DNA from: Elusimicrobia bacterium GWA2_69_24
GTDB taxonomy: Bacteria > Elusimicrobiota > Elusimicrobia > UBA1565
Direction of reading: 5' to 3'
Length of the DNA stretch: 64,000 nucleotides
NCBI GenBank assembly: GCA_001799695.1
Contig: MGTY01000063.1
Coordinates: 23,255 to 87,254, forward strand
How positions within the stretch are numbered: the first letter of the stretch is position 1; each line of letters begins with the position of its first letter. The notes below the pieces were generated by a model. That model searched no databases. It was not told the DNA's origin and was given only the letters and a program-made list of their open reading frames with translations. This document shows, piece after piece, positions 37,211 through 58,639 of this stretch. The translations under genes and the position numbers were made by a program.

Positions 37211-39430
37211 ATGCTTAAAAGGGCGCTATCCGCGCTGCTCTGCCTGTCGCTGGGCGGCCAGACCGCTTTCGCCGGGATCGTCACCGGCGTGGCGCGCCTC
37301 CCCGCCTCCGGCCCGACCTCCTCCCCGGCGGTCGTCCTGAACCTCTCCGGCCTGGCGCCGGGCGCGCTCCTCGCGCCCGCGGCGTTCGGCCCGGCGTCCT
37401 TGGGGAACTCCCCCCTCTTCCTGCCGCAGCCGCTCTCGTCCATCCGTACGGACCCTTCCCGCGCCATCGTCCCGGCGGCGGCCCTGGGGTCGCCGAGCTC
37501 CGCGCGCGGAGTCTCCGCTTCCTTTGCGGGTGCCGCGATGAAAACCCCGGCCCAGGCCGCGGCGCCCGGACAGTCCGCCCCCGCGCCCGAGAAGGACCCG
37601 GTCGGCCGCCGGCTGTCTTCCATCGAGTCCGAGGTGCGCAAGGCCGGGGAGTCCCTCGCCTCCGAATCCGGCGAGGACGCGCACTCCGCGGCGGACCTGG
37701 GGTTCCGGGCCTTGACCGGCGAGAAGGGGATCGACGCCGCCGCGGAAGTCCCGGTGCCCGCGGGCCCGGCCCACGGCTCCCCGCGGCTCCAAGCTCCGGG
37801 GACGGACCCCTCCGGGGATACTGCCGCCGCGCAGACGCCGGAGGACGTCCCCGCCCCGCGAGCCTCCCTGGCCGGGAGCCTGCGCGCCCGGCTGCGGGTC
37901 TTCGCCGACGACGAGCGCAACCGCTCCTTCTGGCGCTACCTGGCGGGCTACGCCACCTACCTCGTCGGCGTGGAGATGTACATCGTCGGCCTGCCGTTTT
38001 TGATCTCCTCGTTCACGCGCAACACCCTGCGGGAGAACGGCGACCTGCGGGCCGCCAACGCGGAAGCTCTCCAGGCCCTGGTCCGGGAGAACCGCAGCCT
38101 GGCCCGCATCGCCCATTGGACCTCCCAGGCGGTCAGCTACGTCTGCGTGCCCCTGTTCGCGCGCGATGCCGAGGCGGGCCCCCGGAAATGGCTCCTGCGC
38201 TCCTCCTTCATCCGCGTCGGCCTGCTGTCGCTCATCCCGGCGGTGTTCTTCGCCTCGGGCATCTTCTCGGTGCAGGCCGCGGCCTGGACCCTGTTCGGCA
38301 TCATCGCGGTGCACTCCTTCTTCCTCGGCATATTCGCCACCATGGAGGCCGGCACCACCACCAAGATCATCGGGGACAAGAGCGTCACCCCGGCCGAGCG
38401 CATGAAGGCGAACGCCCTGTTGACCCTGGTGGCCGCCGCCATCGCCGTCGTCGCCCCGGCCTTCGCGGGGCCGCTCGCCCACATCGGCAACCTGTTCGGC
38501 AAGGAGGGGGTCGGGGGGGCGGTCATCTTCGGCATCTACGCCCTTACCGTGGGCATCGCCGGGCTGATCTTCGCCGGGATCGGCATCATCGGACGGAAGG
38601 CCATGGCGCGGCAGGAGACCGCCGGCAGGGAGACCGCGCCCGCCGAGGCGGCCAAGCCCCATATCGTGAAGGACCTGTGGTCCGCGCTCCAGGACGGGAC
38701 CCGCCTCATCCTCAAGAGCCGCTTCCTGCGCACGATGCTGCTCCTCAACCTGGTCGTCTCGCTGTTCTCCGACCCCCTCATCTTCAACGTCCTCCCGGAA
38801 TTCGTCGAAGGACTGCTCAAGGCGAACCCCGCGGCCGTAGACGGCCTGCTGGGCGTCCCGGTGCTCGGCTGGTTCGTCAAGAGCCTGAGCACCACCCCCA
38901 TGGGCTATTTCGGCCTGCTGGTGGCCGCCGGAAGCTTCGGCAGCATACTCGCCAGCCTGCTCCTCAAGCCGCTGCGCAGGCTCTTTCTCAGGCTCGGGTT
39001 CAAAACGGAGGAGTCGCTCACCATCCCCTTCTATCTTCTGGCGGCCCTGGAGGTCCCGGCGTTCTGGGCCATGACCCTGCTGCCCGGGGTCTGGAGCGTG
39101 CTGGGACTCTACGCCTTCCAGCTCTTCGCCGTCAGCTTCGCGAGCATGATCATCATGGGCATCCATCAGAAGACGCTGGGCGCCTACTCCGCCTCGGACC
39201 TCAACAAGGTCCTCGCCGCGGAGTCCTTCCTGACCATACTCGCGGCCATCGCCTCTACGTGGTTCTACGGATTCGTCCTCACCGACATCTCCATCCGCAC
39301 CGCGCTGCTCATCGCGGCCGGAGCCACCACCGTCATGGGGGCCCTGCACGCCGCGGCCCCCTGGATGTTCTTCACCAAGGAGCAGCGCCGGGGCACGAAA
39401 GCCTCCCGCAGCGACCTCATCGACGCGTAG
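37211..39430 (+). CDS. MFS transporter with signal peptide and long low-complexity N-terminal extension
   Basis: About 12 hydrophobic helices after residue ~235; ERMKANALL...VVAPAFAG MFS motif; Ala/Pro/Ser-rich leader. Confidence 0.8.
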   Translation: MLKRALSALLCLSLGGQTAFAGIVTGVARLPASGPTSSPAVVLNLSGLAPGALLAPAAFGPASLGNSPLFLPQPLSSIRTDPSRAIVPAAALGSPSSARGVSASFAGAAMKTPAQAAAPGQSAPAPEKDPVGRRLSSIESEVRKAGESLASESGEDAHSAADLGFRALTGEKGIDAAAEVPVPAGPAHGSPRLQAPGTDPSGDTAAAQTPEDVPAPRASLAGSLRARLRVFADDERNRSFWRYLAGYATYLVGVEMYIVGLPFLISSFTRNTLRENGDLRAANAEALQALVRENRSLARIAHWTSQAVSYVCVPLFARDAEAGPRKWLLRSSFIRVGLLSLIPAVFFASGIFSVQAAAWTLFGIIAVHSFFLGIFATMEAGTTTKIIGDKSVTPAERMKANALLTLVAAAIAVVAPAFAGPLAHIGNLFGKEGVGGAVIFGIYALTVGIAGLIFAGIGIIGRKAMARQETAGRETAPAEAAKPHIVKDLWSALQDGTRLILKSRFLRTMLLLNLVVSLFSDPLIFNVLPEFVEGLLKANPAAVDGLLGVPVLGWFVKSLSTTPMGYFGLLVAAGSFGSILASLLLKPLRRLFLRLGFKTEESLTIPFYLLAALEVPAFWAMTLLPGVWSVLGLYAFQLFAVSFASMIIMGIHQKTLGAYSASDLNKVLAAESFLTILAAIASTWFYGFVLTDISIRTALLIAAGATTVMGALHAAAPWMFFTKEQRRGTKASRSDLIDA
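39350..39430 (+). repeat. 81-bp direct repeat, left copy (3' end of the MFS gene)
   Basis: First 69 bp identical to 42636-42704; 77/81 overall. Confidence 0.95.
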
Positions 39431-39459
39431 GGAGACTAGGCTGCCCTTCGGTCTCACGA

Positions 39460-39969
39460 CTACGGCGTTTCGTCTTTGCCCCCTTCCAGCGAGCGCGACA
39501 ACCGGAGGCAGTAGAGCAGCGGGAGAGCGCCGAAAATACCGAAGGAACAGTCGAGCAGCCTCCAGTAGAAGGGGATCCCGCGCAGGGGCCCGGCGATGAG
39601 CGCCACCGGGAGGACCAAGGCGCAGCAAACCACGCCCGCCTGCAGCACCCACCGGTTCCTGGTCGGATCGCGCAGCGGCCCGATGAAGAATATCGCGATG
39701 GCGACGTGGGCGAAACCCAGCCAATCCGTTCCGTACGCGATCCACGGATATGCGGCGTAACTGCGCTCAAGACCCACACGGACCGTCGCGATCCACAGGC
39801 GCAACCCGCCCAAACTCTCCATCGGAGCATCGGCCGCGATTCCCAGCATTGCGGACAGGAACCCGAGCTCGCGCGACAGAGGGAAGGCCGTCAGGCCGCT
39901 CAGGATAAGCCCAACGATGAAGACAATGAGCGCCGCGCGATAGCGAACGATCAAAGCGGAGCGGTCCAT
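39460..39969 (-). CDS. conserved hypothetical membrane protein
   Basis: Hydrophobic helices; YGTDWLGFAH and RGIPFYWRLLDCSFG motifs. Confidence 0.75.
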   Translation of the reverse strand: MDRSALIVRYRAALIVFIVGLILSGLTAFPLSRELGFLSAMLGIAADAPMESLGGLRLWIATVRVGLERSYAAYPWIAYGTDWLGFAHVAIAIFFIGPLRDPTRNRWVLQAGVVCCALVLPVALIAGPLRGIPFYWRLLDCSFGIFGALPLLYCLRLSRSLEGGKDETP

Positions 39970-40009
39970 GCCTGCCACGCAACCAGAGTAATACGGAACA
40001 GCGCAGCCG

Positions 40010-41587
40010 TCAAGGGAGCGCATCTACTTTCGATTTTCCCGATCTCCCGGCGAGTCCTGCCGACTCGGCGACCAGCTGAGCCGCGCCGCGCGTCGAGTTT
40101 CCGGCCTCCACGCCGTCCTGCGGCGCCCCCCAGAACCGCTCCAGTGTCGGCCCAGTCGCCGTGTGCCGATCCCGGAGCAACCAGCTGCCGATCTCGTACG
40201 GCCAGACGCGGCGGCCCATCTCGCCGTACCAACGCATGGCGTGACGAAGCTTTCGGTCGGGCTGCAGGAAGGTGCGCCATAAGGCCTTGGGCCGAAGCTG
40301 CACCAGGGCCTCGATCAGCTTCACCCACAATAGGACGCGCCAGGGAGCCACGTTTCTCGTGGAGAGCACTTGATGCTTGTAGTCCCAGAGGCTTTGGTCG
40401 GTTTGAATGACTAGCCGCCCGCCGGCCAGGCGGGAATAGGGAGTCCAGCGATGCGGCGTGACATAGAGCGCTTGCAGCTGATCCGGGTCATACGACAGCA
40501 ACTGCCGCAAGCCCCTCCAATAATCGGCATCAGTCTCCTCCTCGAAACCCACGACCCACGTCGACATAGACAAGATGCCGTTCTCGCGCAGAAGACGGAT
40601 GGCCTCGCGGTCCTTCGTAGTGGTGCCTCCCTTTCGGATCACCTTGAGCGTCGCTTCGTTGGTGTTTTCCATCCCCAGGAGAAATCGTATCCAGCCGGCT
40701 TTCTTGTAACGTGGGAGGATGTCGGCATCTCGCACGATGTCGTCGGCGCGGGTCGAACCGACGAGCGTCAGATCGACGCCTTCGGCGATCAGGGCCTCCA
40801 GGAATTCACGCCATACTTCCCTTGCGGATGTGGGGTTCTCATCGGCGAAGTTGACCACTTCGACCCCGTGCGCGCGATGCAGCCAAGCGAGCTCGGCCGC
40901 GAACTTCTTTGGGTCGCGGTGCCGCCACTGAGTCCAGAAACCGCGCTGGCCGCAATAATTGCACCGGTGCGGACAACCGCGCGAGAACTGGACCACGACG
41001 GCGCGCCTGCCGCCCCAATAGCTGTAGCGGCGGAAATCGATCAGTTCCCAGCCGATGCGGTAAGAATCCAGGTCACCGATCATGGGGGCCAGGGGAGTGG
41101 CGCGCGCTTTGCCGTCTTGCCTGATCGCGATCCCCGGGATATCACCCAATGGGCCGCGGCTCGCGATGGCGTTGACCAAACGCAGTGCCGTCTCTTCTCC
41201 TTCGCCGCGCACGATGACGTCGACCTGGGGCTCTTCGCACAGTATCTCCCGCCAATGGTATGTGGGGAACACCCCTCCGTAGATGATCCACGAATCCGGG
41301 AGCGCGGTCCTGACTGCGCGGCTCAGTTCCGCGATGATGGGATGACCCGATGTCGAGCCGGAATGCCCGAAGAGCACCGCGTCGGGAGCGTACGCGACGG
41401 CCTCTTGGATGATCCGGGACTTGGGCATAGGGCCGAACTCAGCGTCGAGAAGCCTGACGTCGTGGCCTGCGTCCAACAGCGGGCCGCCAACGGCAAGGAG
41501 TCCAAGCGGCGGGAGGTGATCGTCCGGGATCCGGCTCCCGATCGAAGGATGAGGCGCGTTGATGAGCAGGATGCGCAGAGGGCTCAT
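40010..41587 (-). CDS. bchE: BchE-like cobalamin-dependent radical SAM protein (anaerobic oxidative cyclase family)
   Basis: GGVFPT, GEGE, SRGCPHRCNYCGQRGFW, FADENPT, TRADDIVRD and YVTPHRWTP; symbol reflects family resemblance only. Confidence 0.75.
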   Translation of the reverse strand: MSPLRILLINAPHPSIGSRIPDDHLPPLGLLAVGGPLLDAGHDVRLLDAEFGPMPKSRIIQEAVAYAPDAVLFGHSGSTSGHPIIAELSRAVRTALPDSWIIYGGVFPTYHWREILCEEPQVDVIVRGEGEETALRLVNAIASRGPLGDIPGIAIRQDGKARATPLAPMIGDLDSYRIGWELIDFRRYSYWGGRRAVVVQFSRGCPHRCNYCGQRGFWTQWRHRDPKKFAAELAWLHRAHGVEVVNFADENPTSAREVWREFLEALIAEGVDLTLVGSTRADDIVRDADILPRYKKAGWIRFLLGMENTNEATLKVIRKGGTTTKDREAIRLLRENGILSMSTWVVGFEEETDADYWRGLRQLLSYDPDQLQALYVTPHRWTPYSRLAGGRLVIQTDQSLWDYKHQVLSTRNVAPWRVLLWVKLIEALVQLRPKALWRTFLQPDRKLRHAMRWYGEMGRRVWPYEIGSWLLRDRHTATGPTLERFWGAPQDGVEAGNSTRGAAQLVAESAGLAGRSGKSKVDALP

Positions 41588-41820
41588 GACGGCTTCCATT
41601 TGGCCTCCTCCCGGCGCCTGTGCTCGCGGAGCCCTGCCCAGGCCTTCGTGAGCGCGACAAACGCCTCAGACGTCGCCGGGTGTCGGCTTCTCTCCTCCCA
41701 GACGAAGGTGATGGCGGTGGTCAGACCGTCGCAATAGGCCTTCTGGCTCTTTGCGACGGGCGCGCCCACGACCGGCTCCGCCGTGCCCGGCCTTTCGACT
41801 CCGTTCAGGTTTCCATCCAT
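41584..41820 (-). CDS. small hypothetical protein
   Basis: GGAGG RBS; ATGA coupling with the bchE-like gene. Confidence 0.5.
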   Translation of the reverse strand: MDGNLNGVERPGTAEPVVGAPVAKSQKAYCDGLTTAITFVWEERSRHPATSEAFVALTKAWAGLREHRRREEAKWKPS

Positions 41821-41978
41821 GGCACCTCCCTGCGGCTCTTCTGCGAGCGACGACGCTGCCAGTCCTCGATCAGGATCCCCGCGCAGATCAGCAGGAGCGT
41901 CGGGAGGGACGTCGCGAGCCCGGCCAGCTTCAGGCCGCGCTCCACGAGTCCGTAGGCAGGGTCGCTCTTTATGGTCAT
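41805..41978 (-). CDS. small hypothetical membrane peptide (57 aa)
   Basis: One hydrophobic helix; first ORF after an operator-bearing intergenic region; overlaps the next start. Confidence 0.4.
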   Translation of the reverse strand: MTIKSDPAYGLVERGLKLAGLATSLPTLLLICAGILIEDWQRRRSQKSRREVPWMET

Positions 41979-41988
41979 ATTTCTGTGC

Positions 41989-42006
41989 TTCCTGTAGCGA
42001 CTGAAA
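41989..42006. promoter_or_regulatory. putative GbsR/MarR operator
   Basis: TTCCTG-N6-CTGAAA, resembling the palindrome over the regulator's own promoter (42570-42587). Confidence 0.55.
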
Positions 42007-42023
42007 TATACATCCAAAAAAAA

Positions 42024-42557
42024 TCAGCCCTTCAGGCCCAACAAACCGATCGCCTTGCCCCCCAACGCGAGAAACCGACGGATCATCGGCGTCGGCAGGC
42101 GACGCAGCTCCTCGTACCAACGCGAAAACACCTCAAAGAAGCCCAGCATTTCCTGCACGCGGTGCTTGGCGTAGGTTCCGTCCGGACTGCCATCGTCCAA
42201 ATCCGCGGCCGCCTCCTTAAGGATGCGCATCCAGGGATCGATCTCCCGCCGCTTCTGCTCCGCGACCACGGTTCGCATCATCTCCCAAACGTCCGGCAGG
42301 CACTCGAAATATTCCCGTCGGCTGCCCAGGACGTGGACCGTCTTCACAATGCCCCAACTCTGCAGCTCCTTGAGGCTGTTGCTCACATGCGAACGGGCCA
42401 CCGACAGTGTCTTAGATATCTCCTCGGCGTCCAGGGGCTTGGGCGACAGGAAGAGCAGGCCGTGGATCTGGCACTCCGTGCGGTTGAGACCCCAATGGCT
42501 GGCCATTTCACCGTACCGCGTCAGGAACCTCTGGGTCCTCTCGGAGAGTTGCGGCAT
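42024..42557 (-). CDS. GbsR/MarR family transcriptional regulator
   Basis: GEMASHWGLNRT, VARSHVSNSLKELQSWG and RREIDP motifs. Confidence 0.9.
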   Translation of the reverse strand: MPQLSERTQRFLTRYGEMASHWGLNRTECQIHGLLFLSPKPLDAEEISKTLSVARSHVSNSLKELQSWGIVKTVHVLGSRREYFECLPDVWEMMRTVVAEQKRREIDPWMRILKEAAADLDDGSPDGTYAKHRVQEMLGFFEVFSRWYEELRRLPTPMIRRFLALGGKAIGLLGLKG

Positions 42558-42569
42558 GGATTTCTCTTA

Positions 42570-42604
42570 TTTCTGAGTATACAGGAAGTTCAATAAATTG
42601 TCAA
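42570..42604 (-). promoter_or_regulatory. sigma70 promoter with overlapping operator
   Basis: TTGACA-N17-TATACT; TTTCTG-N6-CAGGAA palindrome centred on the -10. Confidence 0.8.
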
Positions 42605-42635
42605 GGGCCCCGGGGGGTGTTGGCCGATGGTCCCA

Positions 42636-42716
42636 GCCGCGGCCCCCTGGATGTTCTTCACCAAGGAGCAGCGCCGGGGCACGAAAGCCTCCCGCAGCGA
42701 CCTCGTCGACACCTAA
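42636..42716 (+). repeat. 81-bp direct repeat, right copy (orphaned MFS 3' end)
   Basis: Encodes AAAPWMFFTKEQRRGTKASRSDLVDT* versus ...SDLIDA* in the intact gene. Confidence 0.95.
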
Positions 42717-43903: not shown

Positions 43904-43934
43904 GGTCCCCCAATCATAGCACGAACCGGCTTCT

Positions 43935-44024
43935 GGGCCGATGGTCCCAACCCGCCGCCTGTCCACTGCCTCCGGTCGATGGGGCCCTTGGTCTCATACC
44001 CCTTTTCCGCATGACGGATAAACT
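43935..44024 (+). promoter_or_regulatory. triple-box promoter (GGGCC-N3-GGnCCC-like boxes plus -10)
   Basis: GGGCCGATGGTCCC at 43935, a weak box near 43959, GGGCCCTTGGTCTC at 43982; TAAACT 37 bp after the start of the last box. Confidence 0.5.
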
Positions 44025-44035
44025 ATGACTACGAT

Positions 44036-45580
44036 ATGACATCCCGCTTCCTATTCCTGGCGCTGCTGCTGCCCGTCGGAACCGAGGTCCATGCCCAGCG
44101 CGCGGCCCCGGTCCGCATCGACGCCTCCGCCGGCCTCTCGCCCATCGTCCCGGGACTCCAGTCCCCCATACTCTCCTTGGGGTCCCTGTCGCAGACGTCT
44201 TTGCTCACCCCCGCTTTGAATCAGCCGTCCGCCCTGCCGTCGCTATCTCTGCACGGGCTCGTCCCCGCCCTCGCGCGGCCCCTCCCCTCCGCGGGAGGAA
44301 CACTTCTCCGCCCCTGGGCCGCCGCCGTGTCCCCCGCCGCCGCGGTGCCTGCGGTCGTACCCGCGGCCGCCCAGAGCGTCCTGTCCAGGACCCTCTCCGG
44401 AATCTTCACCGGCCTCTCCAAGACGGAGCGCGGCGGCGCCGGAGCCGGGAGCATCCTGGGCCAGACCTTCGACGGGAGCCTTCCCGGCAAGGGCGCCGTC
44501 TCCGCCGCGGCCGACACCCCCATCCGTTTCAACGGACGCACCCTGCCGCGCCGGATGTTCACGGACCGGGACGCCATGGGAGACAAGCTGGTCGAAGCCA
44601 TCGACGCCACGCAGGGGAACCTCGACATCGTCATCCTGGAGCTCAAGTTCCGCAAATTCGCCGACGCCCTCATCCGGGCCAAGGCGCGCGGGGTCAAGAT
44701 CCGCGTCATCCTCGACGAGCGCCGCATGTACCCGACCCCGGGGAAGGGGACGCGCTCGCAGGACATCCAGGCCATCATCGACGCGGGGCTCGAGATCCGG
44801 ACCATCCGCGGCAAGCTCCCCTACGGGATGATGCACAACAAGGTCTCCATCCACGACGACAAGCTCATGCTGGCCGGCTCCTTCAACTGGACCCACGCGG
44901 CCGACACCTGGAACTACGAGAACGCGGTCTTCCTCGATGACGCGCACACCATCCGGGGCTTCCAGGACTACTACAAGTGGATCTGGGACCAGTCGCGGGC
45001 GTTCGACCCCCAGCAGAGCGGCCCCAACGAGGACGGCCCCTACAACGGCCTGCCGCCCAAGGACACCGTGCTGCCCGTGCGCTTCCACGGGATGAAGCTC
45101 CCCGCCTACGCCTTCTCCCCCTCCGACGAGCCTCAGAACTGGATCATCAAGGTGCTGGAGAAGGCCGGGAAGTCCCTGGACCTGGCCATGTTCAGCTTCA
45201 CCTCGGTCGAGATCCAGCAGGCCATCGCCGCGGCCCGCGCCCGCGGCGTGCGCGTGCGCATCGTGTTCGACAAGCGCAACGCCCTGGAGATGCGCGAACA
45301 GCGCTGGTTCATCGAGAACGGCTTCGACGTCGTCGTCTCCATGGGGCGCAACAAGGAGCGCGGCGTCCTGCACAATAAGTTCGCGGTGATCGACGGGGAG
45401 CTGGTCCAGACCGGCTCCTACAACTGGACCCAGAACGCGCGGCACAACAACTTCGAGAACATCGTGTTCCTGGACGACGCGGTCTCAGCGGAGCAGTACA
45501 CCGCCTACTTCGAGCGCCTGCGCGCGCAGGGCGAGCTCGCCGACCCGTCGATGCTCCCGCCGCTCCCTCCGCAGCCCTGA
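44036..45580 (+). CDS. exported phospholipase D family protein (two HKD domains, Nuc-like)
   Basis: HNKVSIHD...GSFNW and HNKFAVID...GSYNW; signal peptide plus low-complexity leader. Confidence 0.9.
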   Translation: MTSRFLFLALLLPVGTEVHAQRAAPVRIDASAGLSPIVPGLQSPILSLGSLSQTSLLTPALNQPSALPSLSLHGLVPALARPLPSAGGTLLRPWAAAVSPAAAVPAVVPAAAQSVLSRTLSGIFTGLSKTERGGAGAGSILGQTFDGSLPGKGAVSAAADTPIRFNGRTLPRRMFTDRDAMGDKLVEAIDATQGNLDIVILELKFRKFADALIRAKARGVKIRVILDERRMYPTPGKGTRSQDIQAIIDAGLEIRTIRGKLPYGMMHNKVSIHDDKLMLAGSFNWTHAADTWNYENAVFLDDAHTIRGFQDYYKWIWDQSRAFDPQQSGPNEDGPYNGLPPKDTVLPVRFHGMKLPAYAFSPSDEPQNWIIKVLEKAGKSLDLAMFSFTSVEIQQAIAAARARGVRVRIVFDKRNALEMREQRWFIENGFDVVVSMGRNKERGVLHNKFAVIDGELVQTGSYNWTQNARHNNFENIVFLDDAVSAEQYTAYFERLRAQGELADPSMLPPLPPQP

Positions 45581-45583
45581 GGC

Positions 45584-46810: not shown

Positions 46811-46844
46811 GATGGAACCTCCTAAGCTGCGAGAGGGTAGGATA

Positions 46845-47840: not shown

Positions 47841-47846
47841 AGTCCG

Positions 47847-49319
47847 CTAAAGTTCCGCGGCCAGGGCCGCGAAGGCCGCGTCCGCATCCTGGGCGCGCAC
47901 GAAGCGCAGGCCCTCGGGCAGGTCGCCGAACTCCTTGAAGTCGTGGATGAGCTCGCCGGGCTTGCGGATGGCTTCCGCGCGCATCTCCTCGTACTCCGTG
48001 GCCTCCCCGGTGACGGTCTCGGGATAGAGGCGGTGGTCCCGGAACCGGAGGAAGGGGGTGAAGAAGCCGTATTTCGGCAGGAAGGATTCCAGAGCGGAGA
48101 GCTTGTACAGGTTCCGGAAGGCGTTGTAGGGGGCGTTGCGCAGTCCGGCCGTGCAGCCTTCAAGCTCCGGGGTCTTCAGGTTCAGGGTCTCGGCCAGGGC
48201 CTTGCGCCCGCTGCGGCGGTCGCGCTTCCAGAACCCGCCTTTCTGACCTTTTGGATTGTCCACCAGCTCGACGATCCAGTTGCGGCCGATGCCGGGGTCC
48301 GAGAGGTCGGCCATCAGCGCCAGGGCCAAGGACAGCCGCTCCACATCCACGACCTCGGCGGTCAGGCGCGTGAGATCGTTGACCCGGTGCGACCCCATGA
48401 CCCGCGCCCCGAGGGAGAATATCTCGGAGATCAGGGTCTCCTTGACCGCCGAGCGCCGCCCCCCCATCCCCACCCGGAAGGCCGCCCCGCGCTGGAAGAA
48501 CTGGGCCAGGGGATAGCCGTGCCCCGCGGGCAGGCGCGGACTGAGCGGGTCGACCACGATCTCCCCGCCCTGGATGGCGTAGCCGTGACCCTCGGGCTGG
48601 GTCAAGAAACAGACCCGGCTCCGGTTGAAGCCGTAGAAATCGTGCCGCTTCAAGTCGCGGAGGATCTCCTCTTCCGAAGCCTCGGAGCAATGGATGACGA
48701 GCAGGGCCGCCTGCACCGCCCGCTCCGGATCGCGTCCCGCCTCGCGGGCGAGGCTTTCCAGACGGACGCGGTACTGCAGCAGCTGCCGCGGCCCCAGCCC
48801 CAGCGCGTAACGCGCGCCGCCGTCGGGGACTGCGGCCTGGTCGATCTCCGACCGCAACGCGGGGGGGAGCTCCGACAATCTCCCCAGGACCCGTCCCCGC
48901 AGATCCGGGTCGATCTCGGGACTCGCGCCCCGGATGACGTCGGCCAGCTCGTGGAGGTCGAGGGAGTAGAGCGCGCCGATCCCCAGGCGCGTGGCCGCCC
49001 CGCTGAAAAGGAACTGCGCGGCGTACCCTCCGGTCACCAGGAGCTCGCGGGCCCGCCCGCGCTGGGCGTCGGCGGACTCCTTCTCTTCCTGGCCCAAAAC
49101 GAGGGCGGGGACCTGCTCCAGGTCGGAAACGCCGACGTGAAAAGCGTTCGCCTCCGCCGCGATGCGCATCTGGGCCTGGACGTCCTCCTGCACCATGGCC
49201 CGTTCGGCGGCGTCGAGCGCCGGGCCCAGCCGCGCGGCGAAGGCCTCGGGCAGGCTGCGCTCGAAGGCCTCGTGCGAGCGGTAGGCCAGGTTGCGCGCGT
49301 CGATCTCGGGGGTGGGCAT
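47847..49319 (-). CDS. divergent UDP-sugar pyrophosphorylase-like (UDPGP family) protein
   Basis: GAATRLG, FYGFNRSRVCFLTQ, PAGHG and KGG motifs resemble UDPGP/UAP enzymes. Confidence 0.5.
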   Translation of the reverse strand: MPTPEIDARNLAYRSHEAFERSLPEAFAARLGPALDAAERAMVQEDVQAQMRIAAEANAFHVGVSDLEQVPALVLGQEEKESADAQRGRARELLVTGGYAAQFLFSGAATRLGIGALYSLDLHELADVIRGASPEIDPDLRGRVLGRLSELPPALRSEIDQAAVPDGGARYALGLGPRQLLQYRVRLESLAREAGRDPERAVQAALLVIHCSEASEEEILRDLKRHDFYGFNRSRVCFLTQPEGHGYAIQGGEIVVDPLSPRLPAGHGYPLAQFFQRGAAFRVGMGGRRSAVKETLISEIFSLGARVMGSHRVNDLTRLTAEVVDVERLSLALALMADLSDPGIGRNWIVELVDNPKGQKGGFWKRDRRSGRKALAETLNLKTPELEGCTAGLRNAPYNAFRNLYKLSALESFLPKYGFFTPFLRFRDHRLYPETVTGEATEYEEMRAEAIRKPGELIHDFKEFGDLPEGLRFVRAQDADAAFAALAAEL

Positions 49320-49324
49320 GCGCG

Positions 49325-50707
49325 CTAGAGCTCCACGGCCTCCAGGTACTTGGGCGTATGGCAGGAGAACCCGAGCTCGCTCACGATGCGCTCCGACATG
49401 GCGCGGAGCCCTCCGGCCTCGCCGTGGACGAGGAACACCTTTCGGGGAGCCGGGTCCGCGGTGCGCAGCCAGGCGACCACGTCATCGGAATCCCCGTGGG
49501 CGGACATCCCCTGGATGGCGGCGACCTGGGCCTTGACCGGGACGAACTCGCCGAACATCTTGAGTTCCCGTTTCCCCTCGAGCAAGGCCCGTCCGCGGGT
49601 GCCCTCGGCCTGGTAGCCGACGAGGAGGATGAGGTTCCGGGGGTCGGAGACCCGGGTGCGCACGTGGTGCAGGATGCGTCCGCCGGTCATCATCCCGCTC
49701 GCGGAGATGATCACGGCCGGGCCGTCCAGTTCGTTGAGTCGCTTGGACTCCTCCGGCTTGCGCACGAAGCGGGTCTGGCGCGGATTGAGCAGACTACCCG
49801 AACCGCCCGCATCCTCGAGCTGCAGGTTGTGCTCGTGGCGGTAGCGCTGATAGATCTTGGCGGAATCCACGGCCATGGGACTGTCCACGATGACCGGCAC
49901 GTCCGGGAACGCGCCGCGGTCCTGCATGCGCCGGATGTGATAGAGGAGGACGGAGGTCCGGCCCACGGCGAACGCGGGGATGACGACCACCCCCCCCCGT
50001 TCCAGGACGGGGACCATCGTCGCCCCGAGCTGGTCCGGAACCGAGGGGTCGGCCCCGCGCTTGCTCCCATAGGTCGACTCGGCGAGCACGTAATGCATGC
50101 CCTTCGGCAGGGGCGCGGGCCCGCGCATCAGGTCCTTGTCGTAGCCGCCCAGGTCGCCCGAGACCGCGAGGCGCCGGCCCTCGAAATCGAGCACCGCAAA
50201 GGCCGCGCCGAGGATGTGCCCGGTGGGATGGAACGCCGCCCGGATCCCCGGAACGAGTTCGACTTCCCGGTCGAAATCGAGGGTCCGCAGGTGAGTCAGG
50301 GTGTGCTGGGCGTCCTCCTTCGTGTAGAGCGGAAGGGCGGGTTTGTGCTTGGAGTAGCCCTCCTTGTTCGCGTAGCGCGCCTCTTCCTCCTGCAGATAGC
50401 CGCTGTCCGGAAGGAGGAGCCCCAAAAGCTCGCGAGTCGCGGGGGTGCAGAAGATGGGGCCTTCGAACCCTCCCCGCACCAGGCGCGGGAGATAGCCGCT
50501 GTGATCGATGTGGGCGTGGGTGACCACCACGGCGTCGATCTCCGCGGGCGGGACCGGCAGCGGCTCCCAATTGCGCTGCCGGAGCTCCTTGAGTCCCTGG
50601 AAGAGCCCGCAATCCACGAGTATCCGGGTCCCTCCCGTTTCAAGCAGGAACTTGGAACCGGTGACGGTACCGGTCGCTCCGAGGAAACGCAATGTGGGTT
50701 GTGCCAT
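49325..50707 (-). CDS. MBL-fold beta-CASP ribonuclease
   Basis: GATGTVTGS, THAHIDHSG, GHILG, ESTYG, PAFAVGR and SAHGD. Confidence 0.93.
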   Translation of the reverse strand: MAQPTLRFLGATGTVTGSKFLLETGGTRILVDCGLFQGLKELRQRNWEPLPVPPAEIDAVVVTHAHIDHSGYLPRLVRGGFEGPIFCTPATRELLGLLLPDSGYLQEEEARYANKEGYSKHKPALPLYTKEDAQHTLTHLRTLDFDREVELVPGIRAAFHPTGHILGAAFAVLDFEGRRLAVSGDLGGYDKDLMRGPAPLPKGMHYVLAESTYGSKRGADPSVPDQLGATMVPVLERGGVVVIPAFAVGRTSVLLYHIRRMQDRGAFPDVPVIVDSPMAVDSAKIYQRYRHEHNLQLEDAGGSGSLLNPRQTRFVRKPEESKRLNELDGPAVIISASGMMTGGRILHHVRTRVSDPRNLILLVGYQAEGTRGRALLEGKRELKMFGEFVPVKAQVAAIQGMSAHGDSDDVVAWLRTADPAPRKVFLVHGEAGGLRAMSERIVSELGFSCHTPKYLEAVEL

Positions 50708-50816
50708 GAATGGGGCTCCGTGCGAAGTATAATCATAGCCCATACGGACGAGGTCGGCAAATCCATTGCATTAGGCTGGATGAGAGCTCCCGGGGGCGGG
50801 ACTCCAGGAGGCGGAC

Positions 50817-52517
50817 ATGTTCAGGTACGTCACGCAGCGGGACGCGTTCACGGGCGAGGATTACGTCGAAGTCCCCTTCAAGGGCCATCGCCTGGTAGAG
50901 AGCCCTATGTTCAACAAGGGCACCGCGTTCTCGCAGGAGGAGCGCGACAGTCTGGACCTCGACGGGCTGTTCCCGGACGACGTGCAGGACCTGGAGCGGC
51001 AGGTCCAGCGCTGCTGGGAGAGCTACGGCGCCAAGTCCACCGACCTCGAAAAATACATCTACCTGGTGTCCCTGCAGGACCGCAGCGAGACCCTGTTCTA
51101 CCGCCTCGTCCAGGAGCACCTGGAGGAGATGCTCCCCATCATCTACACCCCCACGGTGGGCCAGGCCTGCCGCCAGTTCAGCCATATATTCCGCCGCCCC
51201 CGCGGCCTTTTCGTCTCGCCCAACAACATCCAGCGCATCGAGGACGTACTGCGCAACGCCCCCTTCTCCAACGTCTCCCTAATCGTGGTCACCGACGGCG
51301 AGCGCATCCTCGGCCTCGGGGATCAGGGCGCCGGCGGCATCGGCATCCCGATCGGCAAGAGCAGCCTCTACGTCGCCGCCGGGGGTTTCCACCCCGCTTT
51401 CTGCCTGCCCATCCTCATCGACGTGGGCACCAACAACCCGGACCTCCTCAAGGACCCTCTCTACATCGGACTGAAGTCCCCCCGCCTCACGGGCGACCGC
51501 TACGACGCGCTCATCGAACGCTTCGTCTGGGGAGTCCGGCGGATCTTCCCCAACGCCCTGCTGCAGTGGGAGGACTTCGGCAAGCAGAACGCCTTCCGGC
51601 TGTTGGAGCGCTACCGGGACCGGATATGCTCCTTCAACGACGACATCCAGGGGACCGCCGCGGTCGCGAACGCCACGCTGCTGTCGGCCATGCGCATCAA
51701 GCGCGAGAAGCTGCGGGACCAGCGCTTCGTCCTGGTGGGCCAGGGCCAGGCCGGCATCGGCATCGCCCGGCAGATCCTGCTCGGCCTCATGGACGAGGGT
51801 CTAAGCGAAGCCGAGGCCCGGGAACGCCTCTTCGGGATAGACCAGGACGGCCTCCTCGTGGAAGGGATGGCCGTATCCGAGGAGCAGAAGCCGTTCGTGA
51901 CGCCGCGCGCGCGGGTCGCGGGCTGGGAACTGCAGAACCCGGGGCGCATCGGGATCCTGGACGCCGTGCGCAACGCCAAGGCCACCGTCCTCATCGGCGT
52001 CACCGCCCAACCCGGGACCTTCGACGAGGCCATCCTCCGGGAAATGGGCAAGAACACGCAGCGCCCCGTGATCCTGCCCCTCTCCAACCCCACGAGCAAG
52101 GCCGAGTGCACGCCGGAGGCCGCCCTCCGCGCGACGGAGGGCCGCTGCCTCTGCGCCGCGGGGAGCCCCTTCCCCGGGGTCTCGCAATGCAACAACCTCT
52201 ACATCTTCCCCGGCATGGGGCTGGGCGCGATGGTGTCCGGCACCCTGCGGGTGACCAACCGGATGTTCATCGCCGCCTCCCACGCCATCGCCGGCTCCGT
52301 CACCGAGCAGGCCCTCGCCTCCGGACAACTGCTCCCCGGGATCAAGAACATCCGGGACGTCTCGGCCCGCGTGGCGTTCGCCGTGGCCAAGGAAGCGCGG
52401 GACTCGGGTCTCGGGCTGCTCCGGGACGACTCCCAGTTCCAGCGCATGATCCGCAACGCGATGTGGGAACCTAGATACCTGCCGTATCGCTGGGCAACGC
52501 AGGGATCGGCGCGGTAG
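50817..52517 (+). CDS. maeA: NAD-dependent malic enzyme
   Basis: FNKGTAF, YTPTVG, VTDGERILGLGD, QWEDF, FNDDIQGT and LSNPTSKAE. Confidence 0.95.
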   Translation: MFRYVTQRDAFTGEDYVEVPFKGHRLVESPMFNKGTAFSQEERDSLDLDGLFPDDVQDLERQVQRCWESYGAKSTDLEKYIYLVSLQDRSETLFYRLVQEHLEEMLPIIYTPTVGQACRQFSHIFRRPRGLFVSPNNIQRIEDVLRNAPFSNVSLIVVTDGERILGLGDQGAGGIGIPIGKSSLYVAAGGFHPAFCLPILIDVGTNNPDLLKDPLYIGLKSPRLTGDRYDALIERFVWGVRRIFPNALLQWEDFGKQNAFRLLERYRDRICSFNDDIQGTAAVANATLLSAMRIKREKLRDQRFVLVGQGQAGIGIARQILLGLMDEGLSEAEARERLFGIDQDGLLVEGMAVSEEQKPFVTPRARVAGWELQNPGRIGILDAVRNAKATVLIGVTAQPGTFDEAILREMGKNTQRPVILPLSNPTSKAECTPEAALRATEGRCLCAAGSPFPGVSQCNNLYIFPGMGLGAMVSGTLRVTNRMFIAASHAIAGSVTEQALASGQLLPGIKNIRDVSARVAFAVAKEARDSGLGLLRDDSQFQRMIRNAMWEPRYLPYRWATQGSAR

Positions 52518-52585
52518 GAGCATCGAGCCCTTCCTCGTGCCGGCTGAGGCGCGGGCGCAGGGCGATGAATCCCATGGCCGCGGAC

Positions 52586-52787
52586 CCAGTGCAGTCGTCA
52601 TAAATCCAATCACATTCGTCACCCCGGCGAAGGCCGGGATCCAGCGGCCTGCCGTCACCCCGGCGAAAGCCGGGGTCCAGGCGCCGCACCAGAACAGGTG
52701 TTTGAATCCGTTCCACACGCCGGCTACCGGCTTTCGCCGGCATGACGGCTTTTCAAATGTAAAAAGGCGTTGAACTCACTACACTGG
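52586..52787. mobile_element. MITE-like element containing REP-like palindromes
   Basis: 10-bp terminal inverted repeats with 1 mismatch (CCAGTGCAGT / ACTACACTGG); internal GTCACCCCGGCGAA(A/G)GCCGGG(A/G)TCCAG units at 52618 and 52654 and an inverted copy at 52727-52747. Confidence 0.6.
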
Positions 52788-52809
52788 TGTTTATGCCCCT
52801 CCCCCAGGT

Positions 52810-52898
52810 TCCGCAAAGGTCCCATTCCGCGCTGGGCCGTTAATCGCCCCGGCCTTGCCCCTCCGGCCCAAGGTCCGGAGGCGGATCATTGATACAAT
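52810..52898 (+). promoter_or_regulatory. triple-box promoter (degenerate boxes plus -10)
   Basis: Boxes at 52810, 52834 and 52856; TACAAT 37 bp after the start of the last box. Confidence 0.45.
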
Positions 52899-52927
52899 CA
52901 CGGTAAGCTTTTGCGGAGGAATATCCG

Positions 52928-54793
52928 ATGAAATCCACATCCCGTCTGGCGCTCGCACTATCCGGGGTCCTTGCCGCGGCCCCCGTCTCGGCCCAGATGA
53001 TCCGTACCGCGGCCACGGGAGCGGCCCCCATCGCGGGGATCACGGTCATCCCCTCCGGGTTGTCGGTGCTTCCGGTCAACCACCTTCCCGCTTCCGCGTT
53101 CGGCCTCGGCTCCGCCGGCTTCGCCGTCCTGCCCCAGGTCTCCCACGGCCTGATCCCGATGACCCTCGCCCAATCTCCGACGCTCCCCCTCGCGGCCGCG
53201 AACCTCGTCGCCGCGCAGACCCTGACCGCGGTCCAGCCGCGGGCGGCGCTCTCCGCGAATCCGTCGGCCATCGGCATCGCGGCGCGCACCCAGTCCCTCG
53301 AGGTCGGCCGATTCGCGTCGCGCATCGCCCCCGAGATGAAGTCCATCCAACAGGGCGCCACCGGCGCTTCCGCCAAGACCGCCGCCGACCGGATCTTCAA
53401 CCCCTCCGCACGTTCGGGCGCCGCCATCTCCGAAGGCTCCGAAGTGCCCGCCGTGCCTTCCGCCATGATCACCCCGAAAGCCGCGGGACTGACCAAGTCG
53501 AACGGCGCCCGCACCACCCCGCTCCTCTCGGACGTCACCTATAAGGCCGAGGTCTCCGTGGCGCATCAGCTGTTGCTCCGGGAGACCCTCACCCGCCGCA
53601 AGGCGGGCTGGATCCGCGAGCTCGCCCGCATGGGAGTGCAGCTCGCGGGCCCCGTGGCCCCGGTCCTCACCATCACGGCGTCCAAGGACCTCCCCAAATC
53701 CGGCAAGGTCGAGTTCATGGTCGAGTGGAACCAGGGCGAGATGCACGTCGGGTCCTTCAAGGCCCTCATCACCCTCAAGAACCTCAACCCGGAACTGCGA
53801 CGCCTCGCAGCCCCGCCCGTGCCCGAGGAGAAGCAGCTCGCCGTGCGCTTCAAGAAGACGATCATCGCGAACGTGGGCGGCCTCAACGTGGAGACCGCGG
53901 TCACGGACGACCGGATCGCCGAGTTCCTCGAGGCCAACGGGCTCCGGCTCCTTAACAAAGGCTGGGGCGACTACGAATACCGGGTCTCCGTCACGGGCGG
54001 CGCGCAGGCCGCCGCCATGGCCAAGCTCCTCTCCGGCTCGGACCTCGTCCTCTACGCCCGCCCCGCCGCCCTAAAGGTCCCCGAGGAGCGCCAGCTCGAA
54101 GTGGTCTTCAAGAAGACGACCGTCGTGGACTTCAACGGCCTGCGGGTCGAGACCGCGGTGAGCCCTGACGACATCACCGCGCTGCTGCTCAAGAACGGCC
54201 TGACCGTGCTGGAACTCAGCCGCGACGGGGTCTGGAAGGTCGGGACCGAGGCCGGCATCGCCGCCGAGGTCTCCGACGCCCTCGAGTCGGCCGGCATCAC
54301 CCTCTACGCCCTCCCCCGAAAGCAGGACCTGCCCGAGGACCGGCAGGCCGTCATCAAGTTCCAGAAGTCCGTGATCGTGGACGCAGGCGGGATACTCGTG
54401 GAAGCCGCGGTCAGCGAGGACGACGTCGCCGCCTTCCTGCGCGGCAACGGTCTCAAGGTCGTCGCCGCCTACGGCGACGGGGCCTACAAGGTCGCTGGCC
54501 CGGCGGGGACGGACTCCCAGGGACTCGCGGAGACCCTGGGCAAGGACCGCACCGTGAAGTCCGCGGTCGCGGTCGGCTCGCTCACCGACCAGCAGATTGA
54601 GGCCTCGGCCAAGGGCGTGGCGTCCTACAAGGGCCGCCCCTGGTCCTCCACCGAGTACAACATGAACTACTCGATGTCGTACTCGTATCTCGAGATGGCC
54701 GGAGCGACCCAAGCCCAGCTCCAGAAGTTCTCGGACCTCTGCGACGCGGCGCCCGTGCGCGGCGGCGGCTTCAACCCCTGGTCCGGCGATTAG
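52928..54793 (+). CDS. exported protein with low-complexity leader and three tandem subtilase-prodomain-like repeats
   Basis: GGAGG RBS; signal peptide; three ~85-aa repeats PE..Q..V.FKK...VETAV....I...L..NGL..L. Confidence 0.75.
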   Translation: MKSTSRLALALSGVLAAAPVSAQMIRTAATGAAPIAGITVIPSGLSVLPVNHLPASAFGLGSAGFAVLPQVSHGLIPMTLAQSPTLPLAAANLVAAQTLTAVQPRAALSANPSAIGIAARTQSLEVGRFASRIAPEMKSIQQGATGASAKTAADRIFNPSARSGAAISEGSEVPAVPSAMITPKAAGLTKSNGARTTPLLSDVTYKAEVSVAHQLLLRETLTRRKAGWIRELARMGVQLAGPVAPVLTITASKDLPKSGKVEFMVEWNQGEMHVGSFKALITLKNLNPELRRLAAPPVPEEKQLAVRFKKTIIANVGGLNVETAVTDDRIAEFLEANGLRLLNKGWGDYEYRVSVTGGAQAAAMAKLLSGSDLVLYARPAALKVPEERQLEVVFKKTTVVDFNGLRVETAVSPDDITALLLKNGLTVLELSRDGVWKVGTEAGIAAEVSDALESAGITLYALPRKQDLPEDRQAVIKFQKSVIVDAGGILVEAAVSEDDVAAFLRGNGLKVVAAYGDGAYKVAGPAGTDSQGLAETLGKDRTVKSAVAVGSLTDQQIEASAKGVASYKGRPWSSTEYNMNYSMSYSYLEMAGATQAQLQKFSDLCDAAPVRGGGFNPWSGD

Positions 54794-54800
54794 TCGGCTG

Positions 54801-55151
54801 ATGGACTCCCCCGTCTCCTGGCTGCCCCTGGCGGCCATCGTCGCGTTCTTCGCCTGGCGCCTCTGGCGCTTCCAGGCCGTCAAGCGGCGCCTGCCCGAGT
54901 TGCTGGCCCGCGGGGCCGTGATCGTCGACGTACGGAGCCCCGGGGAGTTCGCGGGCGGGAACCGGCCCGGAAGCATCAACATCCCTCTCGACGAGCTCCC
55001 CGCCCGGGCCAAGGAACTCGACCCCAGCAAGCCCGTCATCGTCTGCTGCGCCTCGGGCACCCGCAGCGGGATCGCCCGGGGCATCCTGATGGCCAAGGGC
55101 TTCCGCGAAGTCCTCAACGCCGGCCCTTGGACCAACACCCTCGAATCCTAG
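54801..55151 (+). CDS. rhodanese-like domain protein
   Basis: IVDVRSPGEF, GSINIPL and CCASGTRS; N-terminal TM helix. Confidence 0.9.
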   Translation: MDSPVSWLPLAAIVAFFAWRLWRFQAVKRRLPELLARGAVIVDVRSPGEFAGGNRPGSINIPLDELPARAKELDPSKPVIVCCASGTRSGIARGILMAKGFREVLNAGPWTNTLES

Positions 55152-55155
55152 CCCC

Positions 55156-55183
55156 TTGACTTATGTCTTTTATAGGATACAAT
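55156..55183 (+). promoter_or_regulatory. toxin-antitoxin promoter/operator
   Basis: TTGACT-N16-TACAAT with the imperfect palindrome TGTCTTTTATAGGATACA. Confidence 0.7.
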
Positions 55184-55198
55184 TAGGATAGACTGTCG

Positions 55199-58607: not shown

Positions 58608-58639
58608 GTCTGATTTGCCGCCTCACAAACTTGACCTCT

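Follow-up and report, generated by a model that had tools for sequence, protein, structure and literature searches.

Common tags occur on dozens of unrelated proteins per genome in the PEP-CTERM/exosortase, GlyGly-CTERM/rhombosortase and LPXTG/sortase systems and as the C-terminal domain of the type IX secretion system (T9SS). Such shared sorting tags have repeatedly led to new envelope machines, including sortases, exosortases, T9SS and myxosortase. In the eukaryotic secretory pathway, complex-plastid signal plus transit peptides, PEXEL (RxLxE/Q/D) and RxLR sequences act as leaders and have known proteases and translocons. Extended bacterial signal regions include those of accessory-Sec substrates (a long signal peptide plus an AST domain), the ESPR of type V proteins and YSIRK, and colicins have unstructured translocation domains with TolB or TonB boxes. 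Disordered N-terminal linkers are present in the tethers of Borrelia lipoproteins. A comparable linker is described in a preprint as being needed for the correct sorting of outer-membrane lipoproteins (bioRxiv 10.1101/2021.01.05.425367), and MYXO-CTERM, with its myxosortase, is described as a lineage-specific sorting tag on dozens of proteins (PMC11980579). Here we analyze a stretch of 64,000 nucleotides (termed the window; G000:C63:23255-87254) from the genome of Elusimicrobia bacterium GWA2_69_24 (G000; 4.2 Mb, 132 contigs, 68.5% GC and 85% complete). Three genes of this window, encoding a major facilitator superfamily (MFS)-like transporter, a phospholipase D (PLD)-type enzyme and a repeat protein, carry one lineage-specific modular N-terminal leader of ∼150 to 240 amino acids (aa), which is also present on unrelated proteins (at least 54 in this genome) and is kept in orthologues. 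The leader is undescribed and is a member of none of the tag systems compared here.

The three open reading frames (ORFs) were confirmed at positions 37211-39430 (MFS-like), 44036-45580 (PLD) and 52928-54793 (repeat protein), all on the + strand. The same parts follow one another in each leader (Table 1): an n-region, a Sec-signal-like helix, an Arg box ('VVR..P' or 'AQVR..P'), an uncharged spacer of 50 to 100 aa with a few near-invariant prolines, a basic patch, a motif of the form 'L...[FY]-D-G' or 'F..L.GE', a linker and the cargo. The N-termini consist of one or two basic residues, ∼15 to 20 hydrophobic residues and a small-x-small site (AFA|G, VHA|Q and VSA|Q in the MFS-like, PLD and repeat proteins, respectively), with Arg located 3 to 8 residues past the helix (R29, R22/R27 and R26). 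Runs free of D, E, K and R extend for 49, 51 and 78 residues and are rich in Pro, Ala, Ser, Leu, Gly and Val, and the first charges after the spacer are nearly all Arg or Lys. The linker between motif and cargo is ∼12 aa in the PLD gene and ∼40 to 75 aa in the other two. A sequence-only reading of the window had noticed a signal peptide, a low-complexity leader and a similar end motif in these unrelated genes; this observation was confirmed and extends to the 54 proteins described below. The end motifs that it quoted are real conserved boxes: AADLGFRALTGE at aa 160-171, SILGQTFDGS at aa 139-148 and AADRIFNPSA at aa 152-161.

Over-extension of ORFs is a potential artefact in a high-GC genome. 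The GC content of third codon positions (GC3) climbed to 0.82 to 1.0 precisely at each of the three ATG codons and stayed high through the leader, indicating that each leader is in-frame coding sequence. The N-terminal regions of all three proteins also recurred in homologues from other assemblies. Both observations ruled out this artefact. The term signal-peptide-like refers here to our own hydropathy and charge heuristics combined with reading of the sequences; by this heuristic, all three window proteins had the n-region and h-region of a Sec/signal peptidase I substrate. A crude predictor of signal peptidase sites picked sites too early and was dropped.

A set of 2,663 genes, obtained with our own crude caller (stop-to-stop ORFs with GC3 and GC2 filters), was scanned for similar leaders. 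A 70-aa window with at most four charges and at least six Pro was present in 97 genes and started within the first 60 aa in 62; eight of the latter (multi-transmembrane proteins, a PPP-rich response regulator, a TPR protein and others) were removed by eye, giving the 54 leader proteins, or about 2% of the genes in this crude scan. The signal heuristic was passed by 43 of the 54 as called, while eight had a signal-like stretch in frame just upstream of the chosen start; two of the remaining three lacked only an n-region K or R and one was cut at a contig end. The longest uncharged run within the first 220 aa had a median of 53.5 in the 54 members, whereas the 2,663 genes together had a median of 17, with 59 as the 99th percentile. 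The first three charged residues after the helix were basic in 40, 39 and 44 of the 54 members, against 53% basic overall. The 161 proteins of the same genome with a plain signal and no spacer served as a control, of which 20 were sampled at random. These were mostly ordinary envelope proteins (porins and solute-binding, SurA-, DegP-, DsbA-, HlyD-, FecR- and LysM-type proteins, but also a lipoprotein PLD and a subtilase), indicating that the leader characterizes a class of its own rather than exported proteins at large. Two plain-signal proteins of the window, a 1,395-aa protein without a Pfam match and a DUF4185 protein, also have no leader, so that the tag is selective even locally.

Leaders of this composition could be high-GC disordered linkers, built from Ala, Pro, Gly and Ser codons behind ordinary signals or first transmembrane (TM) segments, that have no common function and in which the motif arose by chance or is family specific. 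Consistent with this explanation, whole leaders could not be aligned: pairwise blastp of the three with composition-based statistics found nothing (best E, 2.5 to 3.4), and without the composition correction gave weak matches in several registers. Homology of the whole leader was, therefore, rejected; similarity of the spacers is compositional, and the shared, order-dependent signal consists of the architecture and the box. However, mutational bias cannot explain the missing charge, since Arg codons are as GC rich as those of Ala, Pro and Gly and yet Arg is excluded for 50 to 100 residues, reaching far past the 99th percentile of the genome.

The box itself was detected in several ways. Within aa 80-330, [FYW]DG was present in 24/62 leader candidates and 193/2,601 other genes (odds ratio, 7.9; P = 1.3e-11), with a background of 0.6 to 2.2% per 42-aa window, and was not enriched behind plain signal peptides of the source genome (5/231). 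An unseeded Gibbs sampler applied to 125 aa around the spacer end recovered 'L...[FY]DG' with 11.93 bits, as compared to 8.89 to 9.18 in five shuffled sets, and, for the PLD gene and the repeat protein, chose the very sites that had been quoted; a first run over aa 61-330 had returned Ala/Pro low complexity (12.25 bits versus 10.4 to 10.7 in shuffled sets). By eye, ∼35 of the 54 sampler sites were the box or its variant '[FM]..[LA][LI]G[E]', leaving about 19 members without a convincing box, a point in favor of the leaders having no common function. In an alignment of 24 class-1 leaders, a 'VV(R)..P' box behind the helix and an 'LP[ST][LV]' element in which two prolines did not vary stood out as further islands, and the D and G of the motif reached ≥90%.

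Conservation of the box was highest in the PLD family. In 87 aligned homologues D146 was invariant (87/87), F145 and G147 were each conserved at ≥90%, and the conservation of D146 equaled that of the catalytic H/K/D columns; the remainder of the spacer had a mean majority frequency of 0.29 versus 0.72 for the enzyme. An AlphaFold2 (AF2) model based on the same 87 sequences predicted no secondary structure for residues 1-155, with a predicted local distance difference test score (pLDDT) of 38 to 55. The invariant D146 lies in a stretch predicted to be disordered, and the box is, therefore, a conserved linear motif rather than a part of the cargo fold; the alternative of FDG as part of the PLD fold or as a latch on the cargo was unsupported, because the model leaves FDG disordered. 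The model of the MFS-like protein (21 sequences) had an N-terminal helix, a disordered stretch, two helices, further disorder and a confident 12-helix core, the second helix of the two-helix module (155-169) being the box. A motif beyond compositional bias was thus found by unsupervised sampling, by enrichment and as an Asp invariant in 87/87 sequences. The position of the box at a fixed architectural place, in a disordered context, adds to the evidence against unrelated linkers, and we consider that explanation very improbable. Conversely, these data make it highly probable that the leader is a real, selected and shared module with a linear motif read in trans.

Homologues of all three cargoes retained the leader, and the random absence that would speak against the leader was not seen. 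For the PLD enzyme, the best 120 of 232 homologues at E ≤ 0.001 were examined (119 besides the query's own sequence): 99/119 started with M and were signal-like, 69 had an uncharged run of ≥40, and in 100 [FYW]D[GADNS] was present ≥70 aa ahead of the first HxK. For the MFS-like protein there were 24 matches, or 22 after dropping P0124 (99% identical) and P0125 (first 240 residues the same). Of these, 18/22 were signal-like and 15 to 16/22 had the 'QF..LTGE' box by regular expression; P0129 and P0141 had no signal helix or spacer at their starts, which may be wrong gene starts, but the box region was present. The repeat protein had nine matches in 5.8 billion proteins, and the eight other than itself were all signal-like, with 'AAE..M..V.G' ('AAE..MSPVLG') at the matching place in 8/8 by eye and in 3/8 by a strict regular expression. 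All homologues carrying a lineage name came from Elusimicrobia/Elusimicrobiota metagenome-assembled genomes, in agreement with the proposal of the sequence-only reading that a lineage-specific leader is common to unrelated cargo.

A profile of the 24 leaders recovered its own members but generalized poorly. It detected 23 of 1.84 billion representatives and at least 6/201 genomes of the phylum at E ≤ 1e-3 (17 candidates being scored per genome), observations that could be taken as evidence for a lack of common function; the few matches among the 1.84 billion are, however, explained by rapid divergence of the spacer. As lower bounds, the positive genomes were the source genome, 3/4 of the same family, 1/7 of a sister family and 1/58 of a small-genome family. 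Given the poor generalization and the limited number of candidates scored, these counts are not a census. First-look candidates in 26 listed genomes numbered 34 to 87 in 11/14 genomes of the same family or order, 8 to 20 in the other three (2.0 to 2.3 Mb) and 1 to 7 in twelve same-class genomes of 1.2 to 1.7 Mb, and leader plus box were seen by eye in six fetched loci of three other genomes. The PLD family was present in 7/101 sampled genomes, and in three lower-GC genomes of another family it had a plain signal peptide and no FDG, which counts in favor of linkers with no common function. Pfam-A and NCBIfam searches with 20 leaders (150 to 250 aa; E ≤ 1) gave chance-level matches or matches to the cargo start only, and the ESM Atlas contained no usable look-alike of PLD residues 1-175. 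A full-text search of main articles in the literature found no description of such a leader, and there was also no mention in the main-text passages searched of a giant-gene preprint and a comparison of groundwater Elusimicrobia (bioRxiv 10.1101/2023.11.21.568195 and 10.1101/765248).

The cargo is diverse. Pfam assigned 32/54 cargoes (31/51 scanned plus the window PLD). These comprised transporters (five MFS_1); three PLDc_2 proteins, including that of the window; peptidases (two S8, S9, S41 with PDZ, M16, C11, C92 and a DUF5117/DUF4953 zincin); glycan enzymes (two alpha-amylases, a 2,999-aa GH94 protein and a GT5 starch synthase); nucleases (Endonuclease_1 and PD-(D/E)XK); esterase/phosphatase-type hydrolases (an esterase, two HAD and one HD_5); and nucleotide-using proteins (PPK2, PRK with a PQ-loop, ATP-grasp, AAA_5, a SecA-like protein with TPR and a weak radical SAM protein, whose match, at 25.5 bits, falls short of the 29.5-bit cut-off and which has CxxxCxxC at residues 542-549). 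At least 12 members had five or more TM-like segments after the leader, and at least seven of the members were MFS type. Among the window cargoes, PLD superfamily membership was evident from H267/K269/D274 and H446/K448/D453, all invariant in the 87 sequences. The MFS-like protein matched no Pfam family at E ≤ 0.01, but PF07690 was precomputed for 8/24 listed homologues, and a motif-A-like 'D..G.RK' was seen by eye between helices 2 and 3. No Pfam match was obtained for the repeat protein, which the sequence-only reading had termed an inhibitor. Two of its homologues, P0151 and P0153, matched the Fervidolysin_NPro-like family PF22148 (E, 7.7e-6 and 2.2e-7), so that the cargo may consist of protease-prodomain-like units (inhibitors or chaperones) arranged in tandem and the inhibitor role is plausible by this indirect route.

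Several of these proteins were not expected behind a signal-peptide-like leader: a PPK2 (L034, G000:C95:15009-16289), a GT5 glycogen/starch-synthase-like enzyme (L038, G000:C107:37728-40520) and the CxxxCxxC radical-SAM-like protein (L020, G000:C56:80667-84569). PPK2, the GlgA-like synthase, ATP-grasp, AAA_5 and the Fe-S-type protein need the cytoplasm. Leader-bearing versions are extra copies: a leader-bearing GlgA-like gene lies beside a leaderless copy in two other genomes (G182 and G072), and the source genome has a canonical SecA in addition to its leader-bearing SecA-like protein. Whether the leader-bearing form is the sole GlgA of the source genome, at 85% completeness, was also tested, and relatives have both forms.

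As the sequence-only reading rightly remarked, signal peptides and long leaders are not normally found on MFS carriers, and this is the crux of the topology problem. A hand count over the AF2 helices of the MFS-like protein gave 37 K+R in the canonical inside loops versus 10 outside, and an arrangement with the amino terminus of the core in the cytoplasm (N-in) was also evident from the Arg-rich stretch before helix 1, the 'D..G.RK' loop, the long basic central loop and the basic tail. There was no TM segment between the signal-like helix and helix 1 in this protein or its paralogue L023; with an N-in core, the end of the leader must, therefore, be cytoplasmic. In 14 membrane members, K+R were more numerous in the 30 aa before than in the 30 aa after the first cargo TM segment in eight. 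Thus, although AxA-like sites were seen by eye (VHA|Q, VSA|Q, AFA|G and AWA|T), the N-in polytopic cargo contradicts export of the leader, and plain Sec export cannot fit all cargo. Other routes fared no better. The Tat motif S/T-R-R-x-F-L-K was absent from the window n-regions (MLKR, MTSR and MKSTSR), RR being present in some members and some PLD homologues (LRRFA) but not consistently; in none of the three window proteins did the h-region end in the Cys that a lipobox would have, and the window PLD is Cys free throughout; and the shared element is N-terminal, unlike a C-terminal sorting tag. No classical route fits all members.

With the N-in transporters and the ATP- and Fe-S-dependent enzymes weighted as hard constraints, we tentatively favor the possibility that the leader is a membrane-tethering address tag read through its motif, with basic patch, motif and cargo facing the cytoplasm. 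The hydrophobic N-terminus and the charge-free spacer would hold the protein at the inner membrane, while the basic patch, motif and cargo would lie on the cytoplasmic side. The motif, in its disordered stretch, would be a docking or cleavage site for a shared partner, which might co-localize, release or activate the tagged proteins.

A number of observations weigh against such tethering. The N-termini have the marks of cleavable Sec signals: a basic n-region, small residues at −3 and −1 and a bulky residue at −2 (AWA, AFA and VHA). A helix inserted N-in would put the spacer outside, not inside, and most spacers have no TM-grade segment with which to re-cross the bilayer, few reaching a Kyte-Doolittle mean of 1.7 over 19 residues. 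The charge test at the first cargo TM segment was tied (four) or reversed (two) in 6/14 membrane members. One member, an M50-like protein (L013, described below), has a single TM segment before its HExxH, which, presumably as in RseP, would place its leader outside. Hydrolases account for ∼20 of the 32 assigned cargoes, and Endonuclease_1, Peptidase_C11, the DUF4953 zincin, Acid_phosphat_B and C92 belong to families that are usually extracytoplasmic. No partner was identified among neighbors, by clustering, or in the SseB-like and SecA-like fusion proteins. Furthermore, all gene, signal and TM calls stem from our own crude heuristics.

A rival explanation is a Sec-exported pro-leader, in which the signal is cleaved, leader and cargo cross the inner membrane, and the spacer plus F-D-G act as a signal for envelope sorting, anchoring or maturation, for example in surface display or outer-membrane passage, as an N-terminal counterpart of C-terminal sorting tags. 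Signal-peptide-like N-termini are present in essentially all members and much of the cargo is degradative and of secretome type (the S8, S9, S41, M16, C11, C92 and zincin peptidases, amylases, Endonuclease_1, the three PLDs, esterase and phosphatases). Ordinary periplasmic and outer-membrane residents are leaderless, so that the leader would stand for a destination beyond these; in some shorter PLD homologues, FDG comes almost straight after the signal peptide and is itself followed by the PLD domain; and the genome has two signal peptidase I genes. This explanation is, however, impossible for the N-in polytopic members that have no intervening TM segment (at least seven MFS-type and at least 12 polytopic proteins). 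The outside also offers no ATP, ADP-glucose or Fe-S assembly for PPK2, the GlgA-like, ATP-grasp, AAA_5 and SecA-like proteins and the CxxxCxxC protein. In addition, Arg shortly after a hydrophobic stretch, as conserved here 3 to 8 residues behind it, hampers Sec export in E. coli, and no sorting-enzyme or secretion genes adjoin the leader genes. We regard export of this type as rather unlikely.

The sequence-only reading had proposed a leader that routes cargo through an export or delivery system. In its bipartite form, a Sec signal would come first; a region with no charge and few acidic residues, together with the invariant F-D-G as recognition motif, would then route the cargo onward, to a second energized compartment or membrane or to another cell, where ATP is present and transporters insert from the cis side; the proteome delivered would consist of digestive hydrolases, polyphosphate and glycogen enzymes, ATPases and polytopic transporters. 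It is the sole explanation that fits the whole cargo list, from hydrolases, nucleases and lipase-like PLDs to kinases, polyphosphate/glycogen enzymes, AAA/SecA-like ATPases and transporters. The architecture parallels that of signal plus transit peptides and PEXEL/RxLR leaders, the leader-bearing copies are extra paralogues, and the genome encodes many giant proteins. Against this, polytopic proteins would need to pass SecYEG without integrating and the Fe-S cargo would still have no assembly system. No machinery and no evidence of a host, prey or internal compartment were found, and the metabolism encoded by this large genome (4.2 Mb) is of the free-living type. Onward transit is, hence, improbable. 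The sequence-only reading was, overall, partly supported: the leader, its motif and its lineage specificity stood, while no dedicated export or delivery machine was found; the leader genes are unclustered and have no specific recurrent neighbor. Nothing in the analysis shows the host-associated or predatory lifestyle that it had suggested.

Candidates for a partner were sought around the leader genes, which are scattered; 11/54 have another within 10 kb, as compared to a random mean of 11.3. No recurrent neighbors were found except response regulators and histidine kinases. An SseB-family protein (PF07179; E, 4.9e-9) is encoded directly upstream of the MFS-like gene but was rejected as a general partner of the leader, since it is the sole SseB-like gene of the genome. 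L013 (G000:C33:1532-6091, − strand) is a 1,520-aa fusion with a leader, an M50/site-2-protease-like part (HEFGH ... NLIPL..DG, by eye), a SecA-like motor (SecA_DEAD, PPXD and P-loop) and TPR. No fusion of this SecA-like/M50/TPR type was seen in 120 other genomes of the phylum, although two giant ORFs elsewhere (in G112 and G014) carry SecA-like segments, and L013 was rejected as a conserved motor for the leader on these grounds. Giant ORFs of 3,000 to 8,700 aa were also observed on contigs C84, C130, C96, C53 and C16 of the source genome, with internal charge-poor, Pro-rich stretches that have the composition of the leader spacer.

Two other regions of the window differ in composition from their surroundings. 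A low-GC island (0.54 versus ∼0.68 around it) lies downstream of the repeat-protein gene and is probably a small foreign insertion; it contains an overlapping gene pair that, by our own reading of the sequence, resembles a RelE/HigB-type toxin with a HigA-type antidote, and a gene for a 659-aa protein with HEAT-like repeats at its C terminus. The region behind the MFS-like gene has a GC content of 0.64 to 0.66 and contains two ORFs without Pfam matches that failed the GC3 filter.

Table 1. Parts of the three leader-bearing genes, and other features of the window (positions in the window)
Feature	Position	Strand	Evidence or remark
MFS-like: signal-peptide-like helix, aa 1-22	37211..37276	+	K3/R4, hydrophobic stretch, AFA|G; AF2 helix 2-27, pLDDT 55-64; GC3 rise at ATG
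MFS-like: R29, Pro/Ala/Ser/Leu/Gly spacer, basic patch R79/R84/R99/K111	37277..37594	+	Charges K3, R4, R29, none at 30-78, then R79, D81, R84, R99, K111; AF2 19-128 pLDDT ∼30, no secondary structure
MFS-like: two-helix box module, aa 130-169, ending in AADLGFRALTGE	37598..37717	+	AF2 helices 130-147 and 155-169, pLDDT ∼74; 'QF..LTGE' in 15-16/22 homologues
MFS-like: mixed-charge linker, Arg-rich end before TM1	37718..37909	+	AF2 172-213 disordered; 7 K+R in last 30 aa before TM1
MFS-like: 12-TM transporter core, aa 234-739, and stop	37910..39430	+	AF2 12 long helices, pLDDT ∼90
PLD: signal-peptide-like N-terminus, aa 1-20, ...VHA|Q	44036..44095	+	Homologue consensus L.L..P..AQVR
PLD: Arg box R22/R27, uncharged spacer, basic patch R81/R92/R118/K129	44096..44437	+	Charges R4, E17, R22, R27, D29, none at 30-80, then R81, R92, R118, K129; P39, P100, P109 ≥90% in 87 homologues; AF2 pLDDT 42-55, no secondary structure
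PLD: F-D-G box, aa 135-150, AGAGSILGQTFDGSLP	44438..44485	+	Position-specific scoring matrix (PSSM) score 25.7; D146 invariant; AF2 disordered, pLDDT ∼38-43
PLD: two-lobed PLD/Nuc-like cargo, aa 160-514, and stop	44513..45580	+	PLDc_2 E 9.6e-54, two stretches; AF2 pLDDT 96-99 from ∼160
Repeat protein: signal-peptide-like N-terminus, aa 1-22, ...VSA|Q	52928..52993	+	Sequence and GC3
Repeat protein: Arg box R26, 78-residue uncharged spacer, basic patch R105/R120	52994..53299	+	Charges K2, R6, R26, none at 27-104, then R105, R120
Repeat protein: box region, aa 125-165, with AKTAADRIFNPSA	53300..53422	+	Sampler chose ADRIFNPSAR; class-1 PSSM score weak, 1.6
Repeat protein: cargo of three ∼85-aa repeats, C-terminal region and stop	53525..54793	+	Repeats visible in sequence
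1,395-aa protein	29314..33501	−	Plain signal peptide
SseB-family protein	36508..37110	+	PF07179
Lower-GC region	39430..42700		GC content
ORF in lower-GC region	40451..41737	+	
ORF in lower-GC region	41751..42596	+	
Low-GC island	55150..58610		GC content
Overlapping pair, first gene	55199..55528	+	
Overlapping pair, second gene	55447..55875	+	
659-aa protein	56628..58607		HEAT-like repeats
DUF4185 protein	58747..59829	+	Plain signal peptide

An undescribed N-terminal tag thus marks ∼2% of the genes in an uncultivated groundwater lineage, and its invariant linear motif provides a direct handle for a partner search. The cargo breaks the usual rules in that signal-peptide-like N-termini are found on N-in transporters, PPK2, a GlgA-like synthase and SecA-like and Fe-S-type proteins; localization predictors will label these proteins as secreted, which would distort metabolic reconstructions of Elusimicrobia. 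If the leader is a tether, a whole set of enzymes would be anchored to the membrane by a new kind of anchor. If it is a transit signal, it would direct proteins to a destination new to bacteria, as a prokaryotic counterpart of plastid signal-plus-transit or PEXEL/RxLR leaders.

Each of the described systems shares some of its properties with the leader. Accessory-Sec substrates, ESPR and YSIRK are similar in that extra conserved sequence by a Sec signal marks a subset of proteins, but their elements are short and lie inside or right beside the signal peptide, and the source genome has one SecY, its second SecA-like gene being itself a leader-bearing fusion. The linkers of outer-membrane lipoproteins likewise form a disordered stretch directly after the signal sequence; however, these proteins have a lipobox Cys, and their linkers are ∼10 to 30 aa long and are not known to have an invariant motif, whereas Cys is missing from the predicted cleavage site of all three window proteins. 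Colicins also have an uncharged, Gly/Ser/Ala-rich disordered N-terminal region with a short epitope ahead of nuclease- or pore-type cargo, but they have no signal peptide, act from outside on their targets and come as pairs of toxin and immunity protein, and no such pairs were seen here. Plastid, PEXEL and RxLR leaders combine, as does the Elusimicrobia leader, a signal peptide, an acid-poor disordered stretch and a short conserved motif on unrelated cargo that includes membrane proteins; the motif sequences are unrelated, and the analysis gave no sign of a second membrane or target cell for the Elusimicrobia leader. The C-terminal sorting tags differ in being 20 to 90 aa long and in having a dedicated processing enzyme each, while the leader is N-terminal, of 150 to 240 aa, has no known enzyme and is also present on polytopic and ATP-dependent proteins. 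The likeness to these tags is otherwise extensive: both consist of a short motif, a hydrophobic helix and a basic cluster, often with a low-complexity linker to the cargo, and both occur on very diverse cargo encoded by dozens of scattered genes per genome within one lineage.

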